Assembly (NCBI GenBank): GCA_964647565.1
Contig: CAZYIM010000059.1
Coordinates: 1-10,078 of the forward strand
DNA: 10,078 bases
Source: an uncultured Methanosarcinales archaeon
Lineage (GTDB): Archaea > Nanobdellota > Nanobdellia > Woesearchaeales > CAZYIM01
Direction: 5' to 3'
Shown: positions 1 to 10,078 of the stretch, piece after piece
Layout of the letters: each line of letters starts with the position of its first letter
Position numbering within the stretch: position 1 is the first letter of the stretch
Position numbers and translations under genes: made by a program
Notes under the pieces: generated by a model
Database searches by the model: none
What the model was told of the DNA's origin: nothing
What the model saw: only the letters and a program-made list of their open reading frames with translations

Positions 1-76
1 TCTTGATAAATGCATCATCAACTTTCACTAAAATGTCCAATAAAGGACTCTCAATACCATAAACATCGTATTTCAT
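1..76 (-). CDS. 5' part of a PfkB-family carbohydrate/adenosine kinase-like gene (runs off the left edge; not in the ORF track)
   Basis: Manual translation from the ATG at 76-74 gives MKYDVYGIESPLLDILVKVDDAFIK with no stop before the edge. This resembles the N-terminal 'DVxGIGxxLxDIxxxVDDxFL' strand of adenosine kinase/PfkB proteins. The ATG overlaps the TGA of the upstream gene (ATGA, 73-76). Confidence 0.7.
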   Translation of the reverse strand, partial: MKYDVYGIESPLLDILVKVDDAFIK

Positions 77-1188
77 TTCAATTCCACCGTGATTTTTCCT
101 TCTTTATCATTAACATCCTTAATGATGGCATGCCCCTTGAGTTTCTCCTTTATTTCCGCCCAGGAATGTTTTTTTCGAACTGCATTTAAATCTTCAAGTA
201 TCTTGTTAAGCTCGTTGTAGTGTTCATATATTAATTCTCCTTTTTTCTGGTTCTCATCTGCGCTTTTAGTCATATTCTTTATGGTTAACTCTTGCTGATC
301 AATGATTACCTGGATCTTCTCAAGCTTCACATTTCTTTTCTTCTCTCCTGTAACTTGTTTATGGTCACTTAATTCCTTTGAAAGTTTGGCATCAATAGCT
401 TCTGAGAAATTCTTGAAACTCTTACTCTCTTCATCCTTAAAGCGCTGCAGCTCAAAAGGGACTGCTTCTTCACCTATCAACACAGGTTTAATCTTAGACC
501 TAAGTAAACTCTTAATAATTGAAAACAGGCGTTTAAGAATATCCTCATTCAAAACAAGCTCCTTCTTATCTATATCTGCCTTCAGACATACTTCTTCCGC
601 ATACAGACCTCCCAATCCCAAGTCTGCTGCCAATACTTTCACTATAGAGTCCTTTTTTGAGTTCTTAGCAATCTCAATAAAAGAAGTTTCATCAATCTCA
701 AGCAGGTTCAATATGGGCGGAGGAAACTCATATTTCACACCACCTCTTACAGTACGGTCTTTCCATCTCTGGTTTTCTAAAGGACTGATAATGGTATAGT
801 CTTCTTTACATAAAATAATGTTGCCTTTACTGAATAGTTCAATAATCAAAATCAACTTACCTTCTTTAGCATCAAAGATAATTTCCACAATACGTTCAAA
901 GTTAACCTGTCTCACAGCTTCAATCCTGGCATTTCCCAGATGTTTTCTTAAAAAAGTGCAATAGCCTGGAGGGCTATCAGTAAACTCTTGTTTGTATTCT
1001 GATAAATAGATAAAGCCCGGTGCAATAACTCTAAGCTGTTTCTTACCATGACTAGGAACATGCATCCTGAATAGGAATTCCCTTTTGTTGGACTTCTGTT
1101 GATATATCTTGTCTATTTTGCCCCCAATCAATACTTGGAATTCCTTTATCAGACAACTTAGCTCCAAAGAGCTTGTTTCATTATTCAT
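73..1188 (-). CDS. Archaeal-type Rqc2/RqcH (NFACT / FbpA N-terminal domain) protein, 371 aa, N-terminal half only
   Basis: NFACT-N motifs 'GGKIDKIYQ', 'FLRKHLGNARI', 'QVNFERIVEI', 'IIELFSKGNIIL' and 'WKDRTVRGGVKYEFPP'; HhH-like 'LAADLGLGGLYAEEVC'; then a coiled coil with 'KKGELIYEHY'. It ends at GKITVELK with no second coil or NFACT-R/C domain. Confidence 0.88.
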   Translation of the reverse strand: MNNETSSLELSCLIKEFQVLIGGKIDKIYQQKSNKREFLFRMHVPSHGKKQLRVIAPGFIYLSEYKQEFTDSPPGYCTFLRKHLGNARIEAVRQVNFERIVEIIFDAKEGKLILIIELFSKGNIILCKEDYTIISPLENQRWKDRTVRGGVKYEFPPPILNLLEIDETSFIEIAKNSKKDSIVKVLAADLGLGGLYAEEVCLKADIDKKELVLNEDILKRLFSIIKSLLRSKIKPVLIGEEAVPFELQRFKDEESKSFKNFSEAIDAKLSKELSDHKQVTGEKKRNVKLEKIQVIIDQQELTIKNMTKSADENQKKGELIYEHYNELNKILEDLNAVRKKHSWAEIKEKLKGHAIIKDVNDKEGKITVELK

Positions 1189-1219: not shown

Positions 1220-3049
1220 TCATTCGACTGTTACACTCTTTGCAAGGTTCCTGGGTTTGTCCACGTCTAAATTTCGCAAAGTAGCGATGTGATATGCCAA
1301 AAGTTGTAATGGAATCACATTAAGAAGTGGACTCAATTGCTCGTCCACCTTAGGTATTTTTATGATTGAATCTGAAAGCTTCTTAATATCTCTGTCAACT
1401 TTGTCTGTAACAGCTATTATCTTGCCACCTCTAGACTTAACCTCTTCCATATTACTAAGTATCTTATTATATATCTGCCCATCAGACTGTACAACAAAGA
1501 CTACAGGCATCTGCTCATCTATCAAAGCAATAGGTCCGTGTTTCATCTCTGCAGCAGGATATCCTTCTGCATGGATATAAGAAATTTCTTTCAGCTTAAG
1601 GGCGCCTTCAAGAGCAACTGGAAAGTTAATGCCTCTACCCAGATAAAGGAAGTTAGGTTTATTGTAGTACTGATTAGCAATCTTCTTTATCTTATTGTTT
1701 TTCTCAAGTATCTCAGTCACAAGAACAGGTATTCTATGTAGTTCTTCAATCAATTGTTCTGTATCCGTCTTGGATATTGTCTTTCTCTTTAGACCCATCA
1801 TCAAACTGAGCATGAACAATGCAGTAATTTGGCTGGTAAAAGCCTTGGTACTAGCCACCCCAATTTCAGGTCCTGCATGCAGATATATACCTTTTTTACA
1901 TTCTCTAGCAATGGTGCTACCTACAACATTAACTATACCAAGAGTTGTAATATCGTTTTTTTTAGCAAGTCTTACAGCAGCAAGGGTATCTGCAGTCTCA
2001 CCTGATTGACTTATTGCAATAAATAAATCTTCTTTTTGGAATAGAGGATAATTATATCTGAATTCAGAAGCATAATCAACTACAACAGGAATTCGACAAT
2101 TTTCTTCAAAGAATTGTTTAGCTACTAGAGCCGCATGCCATGATGTTCCACAGGCAGTTATAATAATTCTTTTAATCTTCTTTATTTCATCTGGAGAAAG
2201 ACTAGGCCCTCCTAACTTTACAGGATTATCTCCCTTGAGAATTCGTCCTCTAAATGTATCTGCTATGGACTCAGGCTGTTTGAAGATTTCCTTTAGCATA
2301 TATGTTTCATAGCCGTCCTTCTCTAGTTGATCAATAGTCATATTTACTTCAGAAGGTTCTTTTTGAAGATATTTTTTATCATGATCAAATATCTTGTATC
2401 CTTTCTTATTTATCTTAACTATTTCACCTTCACCTAAATAAACTATTTTTTTAGTGTGTTCTGCAATAGATGAAGCATCGGATGATAAAAAAAATTCTTT
2501 AGCTCCAACACCCAGCACTAAAGGACTTCCGTTTCTAGCACCAATCAATTCATCTTGATCTTTTTGCATGATTACCAAGCCATATGCACCCTCTAAAATA
2601 GATAAGACTTTAATGGCTGTATCAAGAAGGTTCCCTGTATATTCTTCTTCAAGTAAATGTGCAATGATTTCTGTATCTGTGTCGGATATGAATTTGTGTC
2701 CTTTTGATTCAAGATAACGTTTCAGTGTGGAATAATTCTCTATGATCCCATTATGAACAATAGCAAACCTATTATTACAATCTGTATGGGGATGTGCATT
2801 TATTTTAGTGGCAGGGCCGTGAGTTGCCCAACGAGTATGGGAAAGGCCCATATTAGATATCTCTGTGAATTCATTTGATAATGTCTCAAGATTGGTAATC
2901 CTACCAGACGTTTTCATAATTACCATATCATCCTTTGTTTTCAAGCACATACCTGCAGAATCATAGCCTCTATATTCCAATCTCTTTAAGCCCCTTATTA
3001 AAATAGGAGCAGCATTTCTATTTCCCATATAAGCAAATATGCCACACAT
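1220..3049 (-). CDS. glmS: Glutamine--fructose-6-phosphate transaminase (isomerizing), 609 aa
   Basis: N-terminal MCGI (catalytic Cys), 'LEYRGYDSAG', 'HTRWATHG', 'NAHPH', 'HNGIIENY', SIS-domain 'SQSGETADT', 'GVASTKAFT', 'EGALKLKEISYIHAEG', C-terminal 'PRNLAKSVTVE'. Confidence 0.98.
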   Translation of the reverse strand: MCGIFAYMGNRNAAPILIRGLKRLEYRGYDSAGMCLKTKDDMVIMKTSGRITNLETLSNEFTEISNMGLSHTRWATHGPATKINAHPHTDCNNRFAIVHNGIIENYSTLKRYLESKGHKFISDTDTEIIAHLLEEEYTGNLLDTAIKVLSILEGAYGLVIMQKDQDELIGARNGSPLVLGVGAKEFFLSSDASSIAEHTKKIVYLGEGEIVKINKKGYKIFDHDKKYLQKEPSEVNMTIDQLEKDGYETYMLKEIFKQPESIADTFRGRILKGDNPVKLGGPSLSPDEIKKIKRIIITACGTSWHAALVAKQFFEENCRIPVVVDYASEFRYNYPLFQKEDLFIAISQSGETADTLAAVRLAKKNDITTLGIVNVVGSTIARECKKGIYLHAGPEIGVASTKAFTSQITALFMLSLMMGLKRKTISKTDTEQLIEELHRIPVLVTEILEKNNKIKKIANQYYNKPNFLYLGRGINFPVALEGALKLKEISYIHAEGYPAAEMKHGPIALIDEQMPVVFVVQSDGQIYNKILSNMEEVKSRGGKIIAVTDKVDRDIKKLSDSIIKIPKVDEQLSPLLNVIPLQLLAYHIATLRNLDVDKPRNLAKSVTVE

Positions 3050-3051
3050 GA

Positions 3052-3753
3052 TCAGAATTTATTTTTTAGAATAGATTCTACTTTTGGAACATCCTCGGGA
3101 CATCCCAAGTCAAGCCAATAACTTGTTAATTTTTTAACATAAACATCAGATTCTTGTGCAATGATGTTTATTGCATCAGTAATCTCATATTCGCCTCGTT
3201 CAGAAAGACTGATTTTTTTCAAAGCATCAAATATTTTCGGGGTGAGTTTATAGAGACTTATATTAACCAGATCTGATTCGGGATGCTTTGGTTTCTCAAT
3301 GATCTTTTCAAGCAATCCATCTTTCTGATATATAACACCAAACTTCTCAGGATTTTCTACGTTTCGTGCATACATATAGAGTTGATCATCATCAAAAGGA
3401 ATCCCTGCTAAATCTTTAGCATCATAAATGTGGTCAGCAGCAAACAAAATAAAATTGCCACGCATATATTTTTCAGCAACCATGACCGCATGACCAGTTC
3501 CTAATTGTTCTTTTTGTTCGATAAAATGAAAGTCGGCATCGAACTCAGCATTATTTGTCAGATAATCAATAATTTTTTCCTTTAAATATCCAACTACTAA
3601 GGTAATATCCTCAAATCCTGCAGTTTCAAGATTCTTGATAATATAATAAAGAAAAGGTTTGCCATTTACTTGCACTAAGGGCTTAGGCGTGTTCTCTGTA
3701 AGATAAAGCATTCTTGTTCCCTTTCCAGCCGCAAGTAATAAAGCTTTTTTCAT
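3052..3753 (-). CDS. Sugar-1-phosphate nucleotidyltransferase (GlmU N-terminal / RmlA-like NTP_transferase domain only), 233 aa
   Basis: 'LLAAGKGTRM...TPKPL' signature, 'QKEQLGTGHA', 'IIEKP', 'SERGEYEITDAI', 'WLDLG'. There is no hexapeptide acetyltransferase domain. The stop is 2 nt before the glmS ATG. Confidence 0.9.
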   Translation of the reverse strand: MKKALLLAAGKGTRMLYLTENTPKPLVQVNGKPFLYYIIKNLETAGFEDITLVVGYLKEKIIDYLTNNAEFDADFHFIEQKEQLGTGHAVMVAEKYMRGNFILFAADHIYDAKDLAGIPFDDDQLYMYARNVENPEKFGVIYQKDGLLEKIIEKPKHPESDLVNISLYKLTPKIFDALKKISLSERGEYEITDAINIIAQESDVYVKKLTSYWLDLGCPEDVPKVESILKNKF

Positions 3754-3831: not shown

Positions 3832-4539
3832 TTAATTTCTTATTTCAACCATCCTGAAGTAAGGCTCTAACATTTTTTTAAAATCATGCAATACAACAGG
3901 GGGATAAGGTTTAACATCAGCTAATTTCTGATCAAGAAGGGGGACATCTGGCTTAAACTGCTGTAGTACAAACTTTTTTGATCCTTTCAACCATTTCCCT
4001 ATCTGCAGCGCATCTTCCTTCTTGAAAAAAGAAGGGATAACTGTGGTCCTGAATTCATAATCTACCTTACCATTCTGAAGTAGATTGATGCTTTTTTGTA
4101 GAGCTTCTTTATTGACGGGCACTCTTGTCACTTCGTTATATTTTTTTATTGGTGCCTTAATATCCATAGCAATATAATCTATCAATTGGCGTTCAATCAA
4201 GAGTTTTATAATTTCAGGTCGTGAGCCATTAGTATCTAGCTTAACTAAAAAATTATGCTTCTTCAGTTCTGATATGAAAGAAATCAATTCATCTTTATGT
4301 AGAGTAGGTTCACCACCAGTTATGCAAACCCCATCTAACATCCCTTTTTTAGATTTTAAATGTTTGAAGATGACTGAATGATGAACATCATCCATATCTT
4401 TATGATTAATAACTAAGTCAGGATTATAACAAAATCCGCAATTGAAGCTGCATGTAGGAAGAAATATTGTAGTGACTATCTTACCAGGATAATCAACCAA
4501 GGAGGTCTTCTGAAATCCTTTTATTTTCAGATTTTCCAT
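3832..4539 (-). CDS. nrdG: Anaerobic ribonucleoside-triphosphate reductase activating protein (radical SAM), 235 aa
   Basis: 'GFQKTSLVDYPG', CxxxCxxC (CSFNCGFCYNP), 'GVCITGGEPT', 'VKLDTNGS', 'YIAMDIK', 'YEFRTT'. It lies directly downstream of nrdD. Confidence 0.93.
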   Translation of the reverse strand: MENLKIKGFQKTSLVDYPGKIVTTIFLPTCSFNCGFCYNPDLVINHKDMDDVHHSVIFKHLKSKKGMLDGVCITGGEPTLHKDELISFISELKKHNFLVKLDTNGSRPEIIKLLIERQLIDYIAMDIKAPIKKYNEVTRVPVNKEALQKSINLLQNGKVDYEFRTTVIPSFFKKEDALQIGKWLKGSKKFVLQQFKPDVPLLDQKLADVKPYPPVVLHDFKKMLEPYFRMVEIRN

Positions 4540-4592: not shown

Positions 4593-6719
4593 CTATGCTG
4601 TATGCTCAACCTTTTTCTTATCTTGTGTAAAGATTGTATTCTGAGTACTTTTTTTCTCACAAAATGCAACTCTATCCTTGAACTCTTCTTTCTTACCAAT
4701 GTTCCAATTCTGTACAGGTCTATAATAACCTACAACTCGGCTATAAACCTCTGTAGGTGCATTACAATCAGGACATTTGAAAATCTCTCCTTTGATATAT
4801 CCATGTTCCTTACAGATACTAAACGTAGGTGTTATTGTGAAGTAAGGCAACTTAAAATGTTTAGCAAGTCTCTGGACAAGCTTTTTACAGGTCTCAATAT
4901 CAGTCACCTTCTCACCAATAAACCCATGCATTACAGTACCACCCGTATATAATGTTTGTATATCATCCTGAAGCTCAAAGGCCTCAAAGATATCATCTGT
5001 ATGGCCAACTGGAAGCTGTGAAGAGTTGGTATAATAGGGATCTTTCTTTCCTGCCGCAATTATATCCGGATATTTAGCTTTATCAATTTTAGCAAATCTG
5101 TAGCTGGTTCCTTCTGCAGGGGTTGCTTCTAGATTATAGATGTTTCCAGTCTCTTCTTGATACTCAGTCAATTTTTTTCTCATGAATTTAAGCACTTCTA
5201 CTGCAAAAGCCTTACCCTCTACTGTAGCTATATGCTTATCTTTTCCAAGGAAGTTCAATAAAGCTTCATTCAGACCATTCAATCCGATTGTAGAGAAGTG
5301 ATGCTTCAAAGTTCCTAAGTACCTCTTGGTATAAGGCAATAGTCCACTATCCATGTGTTTTTGAACAATCTTTCGCTTTATCTCCAGAGACTCCATAGCT
5401 ATATCCATCAACCTTGTCAGTTTTTCAAAAAAGTCCTTTTTAGTCTTGGCAAGATAACCAAGTCGTGGCATATTTATCGTAACAACACCCAAGGATCCAG
5501 TTGACTCTCCAAATCCAAAGAGGCCTCCTGTTTTTTTCTTCAAATCTTTCAGGTTCATCTGCAATCTGCAGCACATACTTCTAACATCTTGAGGATTCAG
5601 ATCAGAATTGAGGAAATTCTGGAAATACGGCAACCCATACTTAGAGGTCATCTCAAAAAGCAGATTTGAATTTTCAGTATTCCAATCAAAATCATGTGTT
5701 ATGTTATATGTCGGGATTGGAAATGTAAATACCCTGCCCTTAGCATCCCCTTCAGACATGGTCTCAATAAATGCCTTATTAAGCATATCCATCTCAGTTT
5801 GATAATCTGCATATGTCTCATCAAGCAGTTTGCCACCCCATACAACCCGTTCTTTCTTAAGGTCATCTGGAACAGTCCAGTCAAGAGTAATATTAGAGAA
5901 TGGCGTTTGCCCACCCCATCTTGATGGAACATTCATATTAAAAACAAATTGTTGTATAAGTTGTTTGACTCTTGCATAATCAAGCTTATCTTTCCTTACA
6001 AAGGGCGCTAAATATGTATCAAATGAACTAAAGGCCATAGCACCAGACCATTCATTCTGTAAAGTTCCCATAAAATTAACCATTTGTCCTAGTGCAGTTT
6101 CCAAATGTTTTGGAGGCTTAGAATCAATCTTACCAGGCACTCCATTAAATCCTTCAAATAGTAGTTGTTTAAGGCTCCATCCTGCACAGTATCCATTTAT
6201 GCCCATAGATAGATCATGAATGTGAAGTTCTCCACTTTTATGAGCATCCCCTATTTCAGGAGGATATAGATTCTCCAAGACATAGTATGCAATAACAGAA
6301 CCCGCTGTATGCATAAGCAATCCTGAGAAGGAGTAGTTAATATTGCTATTTTCGTTCACTCTCCAATCTACCTGCCTCAAGTAGCCATCCATCAGCTTAG
6401 CAATATCCATAAAGATAGAATTGCTTTCTCTTATCTTCTTGTGCTGATCTCTATACAAGATATATGCTTTGGCAGTCTTTGCGTGTCCTGTTTCTATCAG
6501 TATTTTTTCAACAGAATCTTGAACATCTTCTACAGCAGGATGCGCTTTGGGAAATCTTTCCTCTAAAAGCTTAATAACTTGGTCAGTCAGTTTTTCAGCC
6601 ACTGCTCTGTCTTTACCGCCTACTGCCGTTGCTGCCGCAAAGATTGCATTAGTTATCTTCTCCTTGTCAAAGGAGACAATCCTTCCGTCTCGTTTCTTCA
6701 CTTTCTTTAGTTGTGTCAT
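4593..6719 (-). CDS. nrdD: Class III (anaerobic) ribonucleoside-triphosphate reductase with N-terminal ATP cone, 708 aa
   Basis: ATP cone 'VKKRDGRIVSFDKEKI', 'LHIHDL', 'GYC' (C178), 'FTFPIPT', 'RSMCCRL' (C383/C384), 'EATPAEG' (E536), Zn site CKEH...CPDC, glycyl-radical loop 'YSRVVGYYRP' (G664). Confidence 0.97.
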   Translation of the reverse strand: MTQLKKVKKRDGRIVSFDKEKITNAIFAAATAVGGKDRAVAEKLTDQVIKLLEERFPKAHPAVEDVQDSVEKILIETGHAKTAKAYILYRDQHKKIRESNSIFMDIAKLMDGYLRQVDWRVNENSNINYSFSGLLMHTAGSVIAYYVLENLYPPEIGDAHKSGELHIHDLSMGINGYCAGWSLKQLLFEGFNGVPGKIDSKPPKHLETALGQMVNFMGTLQNEWSGAMAFSSFDTYLAPFVRKDKLDYARVKQLIQQFVFNMNVPSRWGGQTPFSNITLDWTVPDDLKKERVVWGGKLLDETYADYQTEMDMLNKAFIETMSEGDAKGRVFTFPIPTYNITHDFDWNTENSNLLFEMTSKYGLPYFQNFLNSDLNPQDVRSMCCRLQMNLKDLKKKTGGLFGFGESTGSLGVVTINMPRLGYLAKTKKDFFEKLTRLMDIAMESLEIKRKIVQKHMDSGLLPYTKRYLGTLKHHFSTIGLNGLNEALLNFLGKDKHIATVEGKAFAVEVLKFMRKKLTEYQEETGNIYNLEATPAEGTSYRFAKIDKAKYPDIIAAGKKDPYYTNSSQLPVGHTDDIFEAFELQDDIQTLYTGGTVMHGFIGEKVTDIETCKKLVQRLAKHFKLPYFTITPTFSICKEHGYIKGEIFKCPDCNAPTEVYSRVVGYYRPVQNWNIGKKEEFKDRVAFCEKKSTQNTIFTQDKKKVEHTA

Positions 6720-7192
6720 TTTTTTGGCCTCTTTTTAACACCAGCCCGAGTCTTTCTCAAGTGGGTTATTTCTTTCTCAAAATCTCTAAGAGTATTAAAT
6801 TCCTTGTATACTGAAGCAAAGCGTAGATGTGCAATCTTATCAAGCTTTAGAAGATGCTCCAATATCATGTTGCCTATAGTTGAACTTTTTACCTCATTTA
6901 AGTCCATATTTCTTATCTTAAGTTCGATGTCATTCACGATTCTATCTATTTTTTTCTGTTCAACGTCTCTCTTGGCACAAGCTTTAACCAGACTTAAAAA
7001 GACTTTATCGCTATTGAAAGGTTCTCTTTTTTTATTCCTTTTAATCACGTTTATACCAGAGATATCTGCACGTTCGTAAGTAGTAAATCTTTTACTGCAA
7101 ATCAAGCATTCTCGTCGACGTCTTACCTTTTCGGAAGAGTCTCTCTTATCCACAACCTTTGTCTTATGCGTTAAACAGAACGGACATTTCAC
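6716..7192 (-). CDS. nrdR: Transcriptional repressor NrdR (Zn ribbon + ATP cone), about 158 aa; start revised to the GTG at 7192
   Basis: 'KCPFC...TKVVDKR...VRRRRECLICSKRFTTYE' plus ATP cone 'VIKRNKKREPFNSDK' and 'LDKIAHLRFASVYKEF'. The GTG at 7192-7190 gives the usual MKCPFC start and has GAGGTG 6 nt upstream. The ORF-track ATG at 7216 falls inside an NrdR box. The stop overlaps the nrdD ATG (ATGA). Confidence 0.95.
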   Translation of the reverse strand: MKCPFCLTHKTKVVDKRDSSEKVRRRRECLICSKRFTTYERADISGINVIKRNKKREPFNSDKVFLSLVKACAKRDVEQKKIDRIVNDIELKIRNMDLNEVKSSTIGNMILEHLLKLDKIAHLRFASVYKEFNTLRDFEKEITHLRKTRAGVKKRPKK

Positions 7193-7198
7193 CAACAA

Positions 7199-7204
7199 CA
7201 CCTC
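7199..7204 (-). promoter_or_regulatory. Shine-Dalgarno site of nrdR (GAGGTG)
   Basis: The minus strand reads TTTGAGGTG-TTGTTG-GTG(start). Confidence 0.75.
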
Positions 7205-7207
7205 AAA

Positions 7208-7223
7208 CCACAACATGTTGTGT
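7208..7223. promoter_or_regulatory. NrdR box 1 (proximal)
   Basis: ccacaacatgttgtgt contains a perfect 14-bp palindrome (CACAACATGTTGTG) and matches all core positions of the NrdR-box consensus acaCwAtATaTwGtgt. Confidence 0.88.
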
Positions 7224-7239
7224 GTTCTCCTCTTTTTTT

Positions 7240-7255
7240 ATTCAACATATTGTGT
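7240..7255. promoter_or_regulatory. NrdR box 2 (distal)
   Basis: attcaacatattgtgt matches the core CwA-AT-TwG consensus. It starts 32 bp after box 1, the typical tandem spacing. Confidence 0.82.
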
Positions 7256-7438
7256 ATTTTATGTAAAATCGCCATGATTTAAAAAGTTTATGGTTATTAA
7301 TTATATATTTTAAAGGAAATCAAATTTAAAAACCCTGCGTCGATATGTCCAGTGGTAGTGACCTAGCAGTTCGAAAAAACAGAAAATGGATCATCTTCTT
7401 GTGTCCCGTGCAAGAATAAATTAAATATACACACTATT

Positions 7439-7453
7439 GAAAAACTATTTATA
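7439..7453 (+). promoter_or_regulatory. Putative archaeal BRE + TATA promoter for the tonB pair
   Basis: Purine-rich GAAAAA is followed by TTTATA (7448-7453), about 65 nt upstream of the ATG. Confidence 0.45.
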
Positions 7454-7502
7454 TTCTGAAACCAAAACAATAACATAATACAACATAGCTGAAGCTATGC
7501 AA

Positions 7503-7511
7503 AAGGAGGTG
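7503..7511 (+). promoter_or_regulatory. Strong Shine-Dalgarno site (AAGGAGGTG) of the first tonB-like gene
   Basis: It sits 6 nt before the ATG at 7518. Confidence 0.85.
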
Positions 7512-7517
7512 TATTAA

Positions 7518-8210
7518 ATGGGATTAGAAAACTATATAGCCCAAGAAAATAAAGCCAACGCAAATCGAAAACCCAATGATGGCCCAAAAGTAGGATATCG
7601 AAAGAACCTTGAAAGAGCCCTGATTGTCTCCTTGAGTAGCACGATTCTTCTGTTTGCAGGCTTCAAGAGAGCTCCGAGAGATTATAATCTCAAGGTCTTA
7701 TCCTTGGACACCATCCAACTCGAGGAAATCCCTCAAACCTATCAGATGCGAAAACAGAGAGCGCCAGAAAGACCCTCGGTACCGATTGAAGCAGATGAAG
7801 ATGAAAAACTTCCAGATGATACAACCATAGAAACTACTGAACTGAATTTGGATTATATACCACCACCTCCGCCCCCTCCGCCAGAAAGTGGAAATAAGTA
7901 TGCTGTACCAACATTCATTGCACATGACGAACCTCCACAGCCTATAGGGGGATATGATGCCATAAAAAAATACATCGTCTATCCTGAAATTGCTAGAAAA
8001 GCAGGTATTGAAGGAAGAGTATACATTCAAGCTTTGGTAGATGAAAGGGGAACTGTTGAAAGAACAGTAGTTACAAAATCTCTGGGACCGAACGGTTGTG
8101 ATCAAGCAGCTATTGACGCCATAATGAAAGTTAAGTGGGAACCTGCTTATCAAAGGGACAAAGCTGTGAAAGTTTGGGTAATGATTCCTATAGATTTTAG
8201 ATTGAAATAG
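7518..8210 (+). CDS. tonB: TonB-family energy-transducer-like protein (TM anchor, acidic/Pro-rich linker, TonB C-terminal domain), 230 aa
   Basis: One hydrophobic helix (aa 34-49), an acidic linker and a Pro8 run, then TonB_C 'PQPIGG...IVYPEIARKAGIEGRVYIQALVDERG...CDQAAIDAI...WEPAYQRDKAVKVWVMIPIDFRL'. Confidence 0.92.
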   Translation: MGLENYIAQENKANANRKPNDGPKVGYRKNLERALIVSLSSTILLFAGFKRAPRDYNLKVLSLDTIQLEEIPQTYQMRKQRAPERPSVPIEADEDEKLPDDTTIETTELNLDYIPPPPPPPPESGNKYAVPTFIAHDEPPQPIGGYDAIKKYIVYPEIARKAGIEGRVYIQALVDERGTVERTVVTKSLGPNGCDQAAIDAIMKVKWEPAYQRDKAVKVWVMIPIDFRLK

Positions 8211-8224
8211 TAACTCAGCCAATT

Positions 8225-8845
8225 ATGGTGCTAGGTAAAAACAGTGATTCACTATATTTGAAAAGGTTAAAGACAGGAATAATAATATCCTTATCTCTAA
8301 CCATCCTACTCCTACAGATTTGGAAAAGAATTCCCCGTAAATCTTACAAAGAGTTTCGTCATTCTCTTGAGACTTTAGTTGTCTATGATGTGCCTCAGAC
8401 AATGCAGGGCAGACCTGGTTCTATTCTCAGACGTCCTGAGATGCCACAAATACCTATTCCAAGCGAAGATGAATATCTACCTGAAGATGAGACAATAGAG
8501 ACAACAGAATTTACGACAGAACTAAGAACTCCACACCTCGGAGAAGGACTAGGTGATGAAAGCAAAGGAGGATCTGGAGTATACTTAACTCGCCCAATAA
8601 AAGAAGTAATACCTGCATATCCTAAACAAGCAAAAAACGCTGAAGGCATAGTAGAACTGGATATTCTTGTCAACTATACAGGGCTTGTCGATAGTGTGAA
8701 AGTTTGCAGAAACACAACAGGCAGCAGCATCCTTGAAAGAGAAACCATTCTTGCAGCATATAAAACCCAATATCTGCCAATGCCAAGAGAAAGGGAAAAA
8801 AAATCCAGCTGGATTCGAAGGCTTTATAGTTTTGAAAGAAAATAG
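8225..8845 (+). CDS. Second, more divergent TonB-family protein, 206 aa
   Basis: TM helix (aa 18-33), a linker motif shared with the first gene (PQIPIPSEDEYLPEDETIETTEF), and TonB_C-like 'PAYPKQAKNAEGIVELDILVNYTGLVDSVKV...LERETILAA'. It starts 14 nt after the first gene. Confidence 0.8.
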   Translation: MVLGKNSDSLYLKRLKTGIIISLSLTILLLQIWKRIPRKSYKEFRHSLETLVVYDVPQTMQGRPGSILRRPEMPQIPIPSEDEYLPEDETIETTEFTTELRTPHLGEGLGDESKGGSGVYLTRPIKEVIPAYPKQAKNAEGIVELDILVNYTGLVDSVKVCRNTTGSSILERETILAAYKTQYLPMPREREKKSSWIRRLYSFERK

Positions 8846-10078
8846 GCGTTTACCCTACTAGAAATATATTTAACATCCTTGGGTCTTAAAGCATAATAAA
8901 AAGGAAGATAGACTATACTATGCTCGAGTTTTTCAGCAACACACTCTGTATCATTACTTATGTTCAGCATATATTTGGTCTTTGTGTCTATATTATTTTG
9001 CCACATAAATTTTCTGAATTTAGAGATATTATCGACCAAAACAGGAAAAAGCATAGGGGCGTATTTCGCAAATCGCAATTTTTTTTGTAATGATAATCCG
9101 TCCAAAAGTTCTGAATAAGCATCAGCTTTGGTCAGTCTTGAATTACTACGAACTTCTAACTTGGTAAGATTGTCCACGAGTACATTAATATTTATTCTAC
9201 CAATCTGTTTGACAAACTCTCCTGGCTGGTATGTCTTCGAATCTTCTGAAAGTTTATCTAAAAGGTTCATACCAACCTGATTAAAGAAGTTCAATACATA
9301 CCAAAAGAAGAAATTGAAGATTGGCCCATTCAACAGCAGGGACTCAATGTTGTTTACCATCAACAGTTTTATTTCCTTAAAATAGTTCACCCTGCCTCTA
9401 TAAATATCCTCCTGAATCTCAATTTTAGGATTGTTGACAACAGCCAATCCGCCATAAAGACCGTGTAAAGGTTTGGTTCTATGCAGGCTAAACATAGATA
9501 CATCACCAAAGCTGCCACAAACTTTACCTTTGTATTCAGAGTCCATACAATGAGCACAATCTTCAATCAGGATCAGCTTATGCTCTTTTACTATTTTAAG
9601 AATAGACTCCATATCGCAAGGGTTACCCAACAAATGTGCTATCAATAATACTTTTGTATCTTTAGTAATTTTTTTCTTTATTTCATTAGGATCAATATTA
9701 AAGCTCCGTTTGTCCACATCAACAAATACTGGATTGAAACCTGCTTTTTTCACTACAGCAGGTATAAGACTAAAATTGAAAGCAGGCACCAAAATATCGT
9801 ACTGTTTATGAACACCATTACCAGATTCAAGATGTTTTTTAATAGCTTTAAGCATAAAGAAAAGTGAGTCTCTCCAACATCCAAAAAAATAAATCCTTGA
9901 AAATTTTAATTTCAGAATGTTTTTAATTCTCTCTGTTAGTAATTCTTTTGTCCCTTTCTTAATAACGTTCATAAGACTACTAAAAACCAATCTTTGTCTT
10001 GGAAACTTCCTAAATCTATCCTCGTAATATTCAATTATGCGCAGGGGTAACACAAAGAAAATAAGTCCTATGAGCCTT
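8824..10078 (-). CDS. DegT/DnrJ/EryC1/StrS-family PLP-dependent aminotransferase; 5' end probably outside the window
   Basis: 'ILVPAFNF', 'GFNPVFVDVD', 'AHLLGNPCDM', 'LIEDCAH' (PLP-binding Asp), 'GSFGDVSMFSLHRTKPL' (Schiff-base Lys), 'VYLPFY'. The frame has no stop between the GTG at 10053 and the window edge. Confidence 0.88.
   Translation of the reverse strand, partial: RLIGLIFFVLPLRIIEYYEDRFRKFPRQRLVFSSLMNVIKKGTKELLTERIKNILKLKFSRIYFFGCWRDSLFFMLKAIKKHLESGNGVHKQYDILVPAFNFSLIPAVVKKAGFNPVFVDVDKRSFNIDPNEIKKKITKDTKVLLIAHLLGNPCDMESILKIVKEHKLILIEDCAHCMDSEYKGKVCGSFGDVSMFSLHRTKPLHGLYGGLAVVNNPKIEIQEDIYRGRVNYFKEIKLLMVNNIESLLLNGPIFNFFFWYVLNFFNQVGMNLLDKLSEDSKTYQPGEFVKQIGRININVLVDNLTKLEVRSNSRLTKADAYSELLDGLSLQKKLRFAKYAPMLFPVLVDNISKFRKFMWQNNIDTKTKYMLNISNDTECVAEKLEHSIVYLPFYYALRPKDVKYISSRVNAYFLSKL

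Follow-up and report, generated by a model that had tools for sequence, protein, structure and literature searches.

The window analysed here is the entire 10,078-bp contig C59 of an archaeal metagenome bin (2.68 Mb in 86 contigs; 86.9% complete, 1.85% contaminated), and its subject is a tandem pair of TonB-family genes, which we call TonB1 and TonB2. The pair lies between an archaeal-type nrdR-nrdD-nrdG cluster and a gene for a DegT/DnrJ-family aminotransferase (Table 1). Just as the initial annotation had described them, the two open reading frames (ORFs) are divergent from nrdR and convergent with the aminotransferase gene, and both are intact, with no internal stop codon in a contig of 36% GC. 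TonB2 starts 14 nt past the TonB1 stop codon with no obvious ribosome-binding site ahead of it, and its 3' end overlaps that of the DegT gene by 22 nt.

Table 1. Features of the 10,078-bp window (contig C59); nt, nucleotide positions in the window
Feature	Position	Strand	Basis
NFACT/RqcH N-terminal protein	73-1188	-	profile match
glmS	1220-3049	-	profile match
sugar-1-phosphate nucleotidyltransferase	3052-3753	-	profile match
nrdG	3832-4539	-	profile match
nrdD	4593-6719	-	profile match
nrdR; archaeal-type left flank, first gene of nrdR-nrdD-nrdG, divergent from TonB1	6716-7216	-	NCBIfam NrdR, 162 bits
spacer between nrdR and TonB1; 301 nt, 29% GC, junction of the archaeal and TonB parts	7217-7517	.	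sequence
Shine-Dalgarno-like GGAGGTG, 6 nt ahead of the TonB1 ATG	7505-7511	+	read from the sequence
TonB1, 230 aa; anchor helix about 24-51, acidic and poly-proline linker, TonB_C 153-229 (nt 7974-8204)	7518-8210	+	Pfam, NCBIfam, AlphaFold
TonB2, 206 aa; anchor helix 6-35, acidic linker without poly-proline, divergent TonB_C 130-199 (nt 8612-8821)	8225-8845	+	Pfam, NCBIfam, AlphaFold
DegT/DnrJ-family aminotransferase; right flank, convergent with TonB2	8824-10053	-	Pfam DegT_DnrJ_EryC1, 155.6 bits

Both products exceed the cut-offs of the Pfam model TonB_C (PF03544; 71.7 bits with E 7e-20 for TonB1 and 30.9 bits with E 4e-7 for TonB2, cut-off 24.6) and of the NCBIfam model tonB_Cterm (TIGR01352; 54.8 and 30.8 bits, cut-off 27.1). 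The TolA model (NCBIfam TIGR02794) gives TonB1 only 18.5 bits vs a cut-off of 59.45 and does not match TonB2. In AlphaFold models made from alignments, the N-terminal helix of each protein (pLDDT 91-96) leads into about 90 residues that have no secondary structure, after which comes a compact C-terminal beta/alpha domain with a pLDDT near or above 85. The top matches of both models in the PDB are solved TonB C-terminal domains (6i97_D, 6fip, 2gsk_B, 1u07, and 2grx_C; target TM-scores 0.66-0.82), and 6i97_D is the best for both C-domains, with scores of up to 0.77 and 0.82. Given the profile matches and the predicted TonB fold, the architecture of transmembrane helix, linker, and TonB_C domain that had been read from the ORFs holds: each protein is composed of an N-terminal membrane helix, a long disordered acidic/proline-rich linker, and a TonB C-terminal domain. 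By homology, the N-terminus would lie inside and the C-domain outside the cytoplasmic membrane. TonB1 and TonB2 are 33% identical over their whole length and have anchor and linker motifs in common; a run of PPPPPPPPP is present in the linker of TonB1, and that of TonB2 has the acidic motif only. Also, a 45-nt direct repeat (7797-7841 and 8465-8509; 73% identical) encodes the acidic linker motif EDE.LP.D.TIETTE shared by the two proteins and is a trace of their common family origin, not a mobile-element repeat.

The bin's only 16S gene (contig C15) scores 1405 bits on the archaeal model vs 1048 on the bacterial one, and the NFACT/RqcH protein of the window scores 287 bits on RqcH_arch vs 49.5 on the bacterial EfbA model. 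NrdR is usually thought of as a bacterial regulator; the best named matches of the NrdR in the window are Candidatus Woesearchaeota archaeon, archaeon, Nanoarchaeia, and Pacearchaeota at about 46-54% identity, and NrdR is present in 45 of 60 relatives of the same order. Among 19 nrdR loci of relatives, taken with flanks of only 1.5 kb, nrdD directly follows nrdR in six, where NrdD is 56-59% identical to that of the window, and six further loci have shorter NrdD matches. Furthermore, C59 is the sole carrier in the bin of glmS, nrdD, nrdR, and rqcH, and class I/II ribonucleotide reductase was not found elsewhere in the bin. From the 16S gene, the RqcH_arch and NrdR matches, the adjacency of nrdR and nrdD, and the single-copy genes on C59, therefore, the left 7.2 kb of the window is archaeal and consistent with the bin, and the host is a DPANN, Woesearchaeota-like archaeon. 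The initial annotation had regarded the flanks on both sides as archaeal-looking, and this is borne out on the left (NrdR, NrdD, RqcH, and the 16S gene of the bin) but not on the right. Indeed, the best non-self matches of the DegT protein are at most 38% identical over partial length, few of them are named, and they carry no taxonomic signal; among archaea of the same order the best DegT match (115 bits, 29% identity) is no better or worse than others.

TonB1 has its closest relatives in bacteria. A word-indexed protein search gave 179 relatives at E<=0.001, the best of which are 50-57% identical over the full length and are TonBs of KSB1/Calditrichota, no protein in the database exceeding 57%. 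Among the best 120 of these 179 matches, each one with a taxon name is bacterial (KSB1, Calditrichaeota, or "bacterium"), in agreement with the resemblance to KSB1/Calditrichota TonBs suggested in the initial annotation. When species-representative genomes were scanned with the single sequence of TonB1, no relative was found; an alignment-based scan was needed, and it gave 511 tblastn relatives in the same genomes, of which the best 80 (79 loci) all have bacterial titles. The window's seven other genes have no match in these 79 loci. In the seven bacterial loci scanned with Pfam, furthermore, MotA_ExbB and one or two ExbD genes are found directly upstream of the TonB1 homologue in every case (7/7).

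TonB2, to judge from its sequence, is a member of a second bacterial TonB family, which is separate from that of TonB1. By exhaustive HMMER search, 68 proteins score E<=1e-10, and identity to TonB2 is 52, 44, 45, and 49% in the best of them. TonB2 shares the signature of this family, namely RPI.EVIP.YP ... ILVN..G.VDSV.V..NTT ... AAYK..Y.P ... WI.R.Y.F, and has a 4-residue gap in the family's RKKGIEG stretch. We then looked at 73 ORFs directly downstream of TonB1 homologues, taken from the 79 loci: in L055 (Bacterium BMS3Bbin03; E 7e-27) and L054 (E 2e-25) the ORF next to the TonB1-like gene is TonB2-like, and a third ORF is a TonB1-type paralogue. The order of a TonB1-type and then a TonB2-type gene behind exbB-exbD-exbD thus exists in bacteria. 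In metagenomes scanned with a 6-row alignment as the query, 18 loci with TonB2 relatives had no ExbB/ExbD and none of the genes flanking the pair in the window by tblastn; the neighbours in seven metagenome loci examined with Pfam are bacterial-looking (DUF2062, DUF748, HWE histidine kinases, and S9 peptidases).

In a quick maximum-likelihood tree of 87 rows, from which L013, L030, L056, and L073 were excluded for odd ORF lengths, TonB1 is nested in a bacterial clade of 76 rows, and TonB2 lies inside the TonB2-family clade of 11 rows with an SH-aLRT of 100. The named rows of the latter clade are the bacterial L054 and L055, and eight database rows are without names. The terminal branches of TonB1 (1.27) and TonB2 (1.8) are long vs a median of 0.13. 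TonB_C was not found in 40 of 40 relatives of the same order. With TonB1 nested among bacteria and its domain not found in these relatives, horizontal acquisition, as proposed in the initial annotation, is most likely. The case is not unique, as TonB_C is matched in five of 400 other genomes of the phylum, three of the five lying above the cut-off. We thus consider it very probable, on the strength of the tree and the sequence matches, that both genes are of bacterial origin and KSB1/Calditrichota type and reside in the chromosome of a Woesearchaeota-like archaeon beside nrdR-nrdD-nrdG. TonB1 is the equivalent of the TonB that closes exbB-exbD-exbD-tonB operons in donor-like bacteria. On the simplest reading, an unsampled bacterium of the KSB1/Calditrichota group donated the tail of a ton operon but not the motor genes. 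The pair looks like such a tail because a TonB2-family gene directly follows a TonB1-type gene in two bacterial loci; instead of one operon tail, there may have been two separate acquisitions.

The continuity of the contig was followed in Logan unitigs from four runs of one study, which are 99-100% identical to the window. They form a chain over all junctions, and no loose end is reported at any of these places. The chain is composed of X1 6631-7278, X5 7232-7479, X1 7280-7685, X3 7536-8079, and X3 8061-9118, and the last of these, a single unitig, joins the end of TonB1, the whole of TonB2, and 295 nt of the DegT gene. Continuity across 7250-7520 and 8820-8850, the two places where the initial annotation advised a check, is accordingly supported, though not proven, by low-depth unitigs that chain through both. 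No population variation was seen in the unitigs within the pair, and position 1571 is the single place in the window where they differ. As to composition, C59 has a tetranucleotide profile that ranks at the 56th percentile when compared with 10-kb pieces of the bin, and against 1.4-kb pieces the TonB pair ranks at the 30th; the GC content at third codon positions (GC3) is 0.32 for TonB1 and 0.28 for TonB2, within the 5-95% range of the host (0.28-0.48). Amelioration or long residence is not claimable from these host-like values, since 13 of the 79 bacterial homologues are equally AT-rich at third positions, with a GC3 no higher than that of TonB1. We also considered a tRNA-like stretch of the spacer (about 7345-7375) as an integration site; this was rejected when neither ARAGORN nor Rfam gave a match there. 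The spacer has no second copy in the bin, there are no notable direct or inverted repeats that bracket the TonB pair (the sole long direct repeat being the shared linker motif), and the ends of C59 do not overlap other contigs of the bin.

TonB couples the ExbBD motor to outer-membrane transporters in diderm bacteria, and archaea like the host of the window lack an outer membrane. The initial annotation had pointed out the lack of exbB, exbD, and a receptor gene next to the pair; none is present in the window, and Pfam profiles find none in the bin, which has no match to MotA_ExbB (PF01618), ExbD (PF02472), TonB_dep_Rec_b-barrel (PF00593), or Plug (PF07715). Control genomes do match these profiles; for the receptor barrel and Plug, they are those of E. 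coli, Caulobacter, and B. thetaiotaomicron. Searching the bin by tblastn with ExbB, both ExbDs, S41 peptidase, ECF sigma factor, DsbD, and SpoIID of KSB1 gave nothing, and TonB1 and TonB2 are the only TonB_C matches in the bin. The pair would therefore be unable to transduce energy as TonB does, because the bin is without an ExbB/ExbD-type motor and a TonB-dependent receptor and such archaea are without an outer membrane.

We then examined how TonB1 fares at the columns that are at least 90% conserved among 75 bacterial TonB1 homologues. TonB1 keeps 62 of 69 such columns; among the bacterial homologues the median share of columns kept is 98.6% and the lowest 83%. The overall identity of TonB1 to them is only about 50%. 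Outside the N-terminal part 59 of 64 columns are kept, including 41 of 46 in the C-domain, and in the N-terminal/anchor part three of five are kept. The anchor changes include Q47 to Ala and L23 to Pro; the columns there are few (5). In E. coli TonB, an S-x3-H motif of the anchor is needed for coupling to the motor, and in the TonB1 subfamily the conserved Gln is a candidate for such a residue. The distribution of changes is suggestive of an excess in the part of TonB1 that would contact a motor, and part of the conservation of TonB1 may predate the transfer.

An orphan TonB_C protein is also found in G197, a 97% complete genome of the same order. The protein has 139 aa (256-675 of locus L129, contig C29) with a signal-peptide-like N-terminus, and its C-domain is 49% identical to that of TonB1. 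Its contig (7.7 kb, 32% GC) also carries archaeal/eukaryotic-type uS15, Lrp/AsnC, and DUF7523. No ExbB was found in the G197 genome, and ExbD gave only a sub-threshold match (16.8 bits vs a cut-off of 25.4). A C-domain tree uniting both archaeal proteins is not rejected (AU p 0.78) and exceeds the free quick tree by 21 log-likelihood units; the branch of the G197 protein is very long (5.6), and the grouping with TonB1 may be long-branch attraction. Two further genomes, G361 and G346, were not counted as archaeal cases, the neighbours of their TonB_C matches being bacterial-looking or ambiguous; those in G361 are HlyD and YkuD. In G346 (L130; contig C3, 5300-10045), two TonB_C-like ORFs about 4 kb apart lie among genes for TPR, CarbopepD_reg, DUF1493, M48 peptidase, and alpha-amylase proteins, and this stretch looks like Bacteroidota-type DNA in a DPANN bin, either by contamination or by a larger transfer. 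Also, in G357 of the same order, a MotA_ExbB match of 30.1 bits, over the cut-off, lies inside an open frame of 497 aa (L137; contig C68, 5163-5348), and a weak TonB_C-like match is present on another contig (C31, 2.5 kb).

What the pair does in the archaeon can be proposed from the fold. TonB binds the TonB box of its partners by strand pairing, and complexes with BtuB, FhuA, and FoxA have been solved; indeed, these complexes top the fold search of both C-domains. With the linker as a flexible stalk, the TonB C-domains would project beyond the cytoplasmic membrane, where each could bind a partner's extended peptide by strand pairing, as TonB does with the TonB box. By this analogy, the two proteins could be passive membrane-tethered binding modules, a role that we put forward tentatively and at somewhat less than even odds. 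The repurposed, surface-displayed binding domains suggested in the initial annotation are likewise putative. For the statement as a whole, namely that genes of bacterial origin reside in an archaeal genome and serve there in passive binding, we would give a probability of about 0.5. The surface-glycan genes beside the pair (glmS, the sugar nucleotidyltransferase gene, and DegT) give a weak hint at an envelope context. Binding of peptidoglycan by the TonB C-terminal domain was considered as well, and the one literature search aimed at it surfaced no support.

Several observations weigh against residence of the pair in the archaeon and passive binding there. The bin exceeds in size every listed relative, the 40 nearest genomes being all of the same order and 0.6-2.1 Mb in size; the contig is, at 10 kb, a short one in a metagenome bin; archaeal DNA is demonstrated on the left side only, because the DegT flank gives no taxonomic signal; the runs have a depth of about 1-5x and are possibly the source samples, hence not independent of the assembly; and the X1 unitigs abut at 7279, a point spanned only by the 248-nt unitig of X5. 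The host-like GC3 is, as said above, not foreign to the bacterial homologues either. Also, a motor could sit in the roughly 13% of the bin that is missing, and the linker of TonB1 keeps all 18 of 18 conserved columns, as would be expected if contacts with bacterial partners matter or if the transfer was recent. Most of these points, together with the bacterial phylogeny of the TonB genes and the contig of another assembly that ends inside nrdR (P0241, which has the C-terminal 110 aa only), would fit an artefact of assembly or binning, in which a low-GC bacterium is the source of the right 2.5 kb (TonB1, TonB2, and DegT) and the junction with archaeal DNA is a false one within the AT-rich spacer (7217-7517). 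We regard this as quite improbable. The unitigs of four runs chain over 6631-9118 with no loose end at the junction, and an identical TonB1 protein is recorded on four contigs; a contig of 6150 nt carries a DegT product that begins at residue 148 and, if this product is cut by the contig end, would span the pair and nrdR. In tetranucleotide profile and GC3 the sequence resembles the rest of the bin, in which no other KSB1-type neighbour gene was found. Furthermore, a chimeric join would have to fall exactly between exbD and tonB, since exbB-exbD lies upstream in all of the bacterial loci scanned, and no sampled bacterium qualifies as the source, the best database protein being no more than 57% identical.

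If the pair is real archaeal DNA of bacterial origin, it could also be a functionless passenger, that is, a relic not yet eroded. This alternative is unlikely in our estimate but is the most serious one, being in line with the lack of a motor and receptors in the bin, the sporadic occurrence of TonB_C in the phylum and the lack of a match in the 40 relatives searched, the long terminal branches, the change of two of the five conserved N-terminal/anchor columns including Q47, and the low TonB_C score of TonB2 with part of its RKKGIEG stretch gone. A parallel would be the incomplete Ton systems of monoderm bacteria, called "likely non-functional" in the main text of PMC12204202. Against a relic speak, on the other hand, the intactness of both ORFs in an AT-rich genome, the substitutions in TonB1 that avoid the conserved positions, the C-domain fold predicted with high confidence, the strong Shine-Dalgarno sequence ahead of TonB1, and the similar domain kept in a second archaeon of the order (G197). 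None of these counterpoints is decisive, given that the conservation may partly predate the transfer. The opposite alternative, a working Ton-like energy transducer whose motor and target either belong to the 13% of the genome that was not assembled or have diverged beyond what the profiles recognize, is very improbable. The incompleteness of the bin, the well-kept linker and C-domain columns, and the existence in bacteria of tandem TonB1-TonB2 genes behind an exbB-exbD-exbD motor would speak for it; but the four profile searches and the tblastn search with donor-type proteins found neither a motor nor outer-membrane receptor parts in the bin, the nearly complete G197 genome has no ExbB and only the sub-threshold ExbD-like match, nrdR occupies the place where the motor stands directly upstream in the bacterial loci, and the organism is archaeal by 16S. 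Genes of bacterial origin in an archaeal genome, with a passive binding role, are the reading that we prefer.

A bolder version of this reading, which is improbable but worth stating, is that DPANN archaea of this order captured TonB C-domains, among them those of the window pair, of the G197 protein, and perhaps of others, repeatedly or once long ago with subsequent loss, and use them as motor-less stalked or secreted adhesins that grip a strand or the envelope of a partner cell, possibly a bacterial one. If true, a bacterial periplasmic coupling domain would have been turned into an archaeal device for cell-cell contact, and mediation of cell contact by the domain would bear on the attachment of small archaea to their partners. 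As the coupling protein of the diderm envelope, TonB is a textbook case, so that motor-less archaeal copies would be a natural test of its C-domain acting alone; also, the pair would be a concrete, datable case of bacterial gene flow into DPANN archaea. If the pair is a relic instead, incomplete Ton sets, noted in monoderm bacteria in the main text of PMC12204202, would also reach archaea.

Some further features of the window and bin may be recorded. The NFACT/RqcH gene encodes 371 aa, which cover 1-376 of the 645 positions of the archaeal RqcH model with a score below the 400-bit cut-off, and its stop codon is 72 nt from the contig end; the product is either a split or truncated rescue factor or one whose C-terminal half is encoded separately beyond the contig. 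Of the 393 positions in the archaeal model for bifunctional GlmU-type proteins, the nucleotidyltransferase matches only the N-terminal 224 and so is without the acetyltransferase half; it has five more paralogues in the bin. Within glmS (2817-2977), a stretch of 113 nt (2841-2955) is missing from one contig in each of the runs X1 and X3, and loose ends lie at 2817 and 2977; because the short side is only 23 nt, these contigs probably derive from the conserved glmS of another organism and not from a variant of this genome. Several tblastn matches of NrdR in the loci of relatives (L109-L127) run through one or more stop codons. The small contigs C58, C65, C67, C76, C77, C81, and C84 of the bin have 45-50% GC and outlying tetranucleotide profiles and are possibly foreign or mobile DNA. 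C59 does not belong to this group.

Among known systems, the incomplete Ton sets of monoderm bacteria (Actinobacteria, Bacilli, Caldiserica, and Dormibacteria) resemble the window in that TonB genes occur without a full motor and receptors in cells without a classical outer membrane, and the main text of PMC12204202 leaves both their origin (transfer or vestige) and their function open. Those sets are in bacteria, however, and the host of the window is an archaeon, a word with no occurrence as "archaea" in that main text; with such a host, a vestigial origin of the window pair is implausible, and transfer is what the tree indicates. A literature search covering result lists, the openings of abstracts, and the main text of PMC12204202 found no publication on TonB genes in DPANN or other archaea.

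The protein of G197 is like TonB1 in being an orphan TonB_C protein on a contig with archaeal-type uS15, and is unlike it in its 139 aa, its single gene, and a signal-peptide-like start instead of the TonB anchor and linker. With the second bacterial TonB family, the window has in common the gene order of L054/L055, and TonB2 is up to 52% identical to its members; in the tree, TonB2 and the copies of L054/L055 are not sisters, and family members in the seven metagenome loci stand alone, without ExbB/ExbD nearby in the Pfam scan. The closest counterpart of TonB1 is the TonB of the exbB-exbD-exbD-tonB loci of KSB1/Calditrichota (e.g., L027, L029, L044, and L066), which has the same length and architecture at 50-57% identity and with which it shares the YxKxLE...SL anchor, the IPQTxQ and EDExLPxDxTIExTE linker motifs, the poly-proline run, and the C-domain. 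Unlike in these loci, nrdR instead of exbB/exbD lies upstream of TonB1 and the host is an archaeon; unlike the bacterial homologues, furthermore, TonB1 has a branch about 10 times the median length and an Ala in place of an anchor Gln conserved in at least 90% of them. The "undescribed system" of the initial annotation was too strong an expression, since the pair belongs to known bacterial TonB families and is not a novel system of several parts: it is the host and the missing machinery that are unusual, and by sequence and fold TonB1 and TonB2 are ordinary members of two bacterial TonB families.

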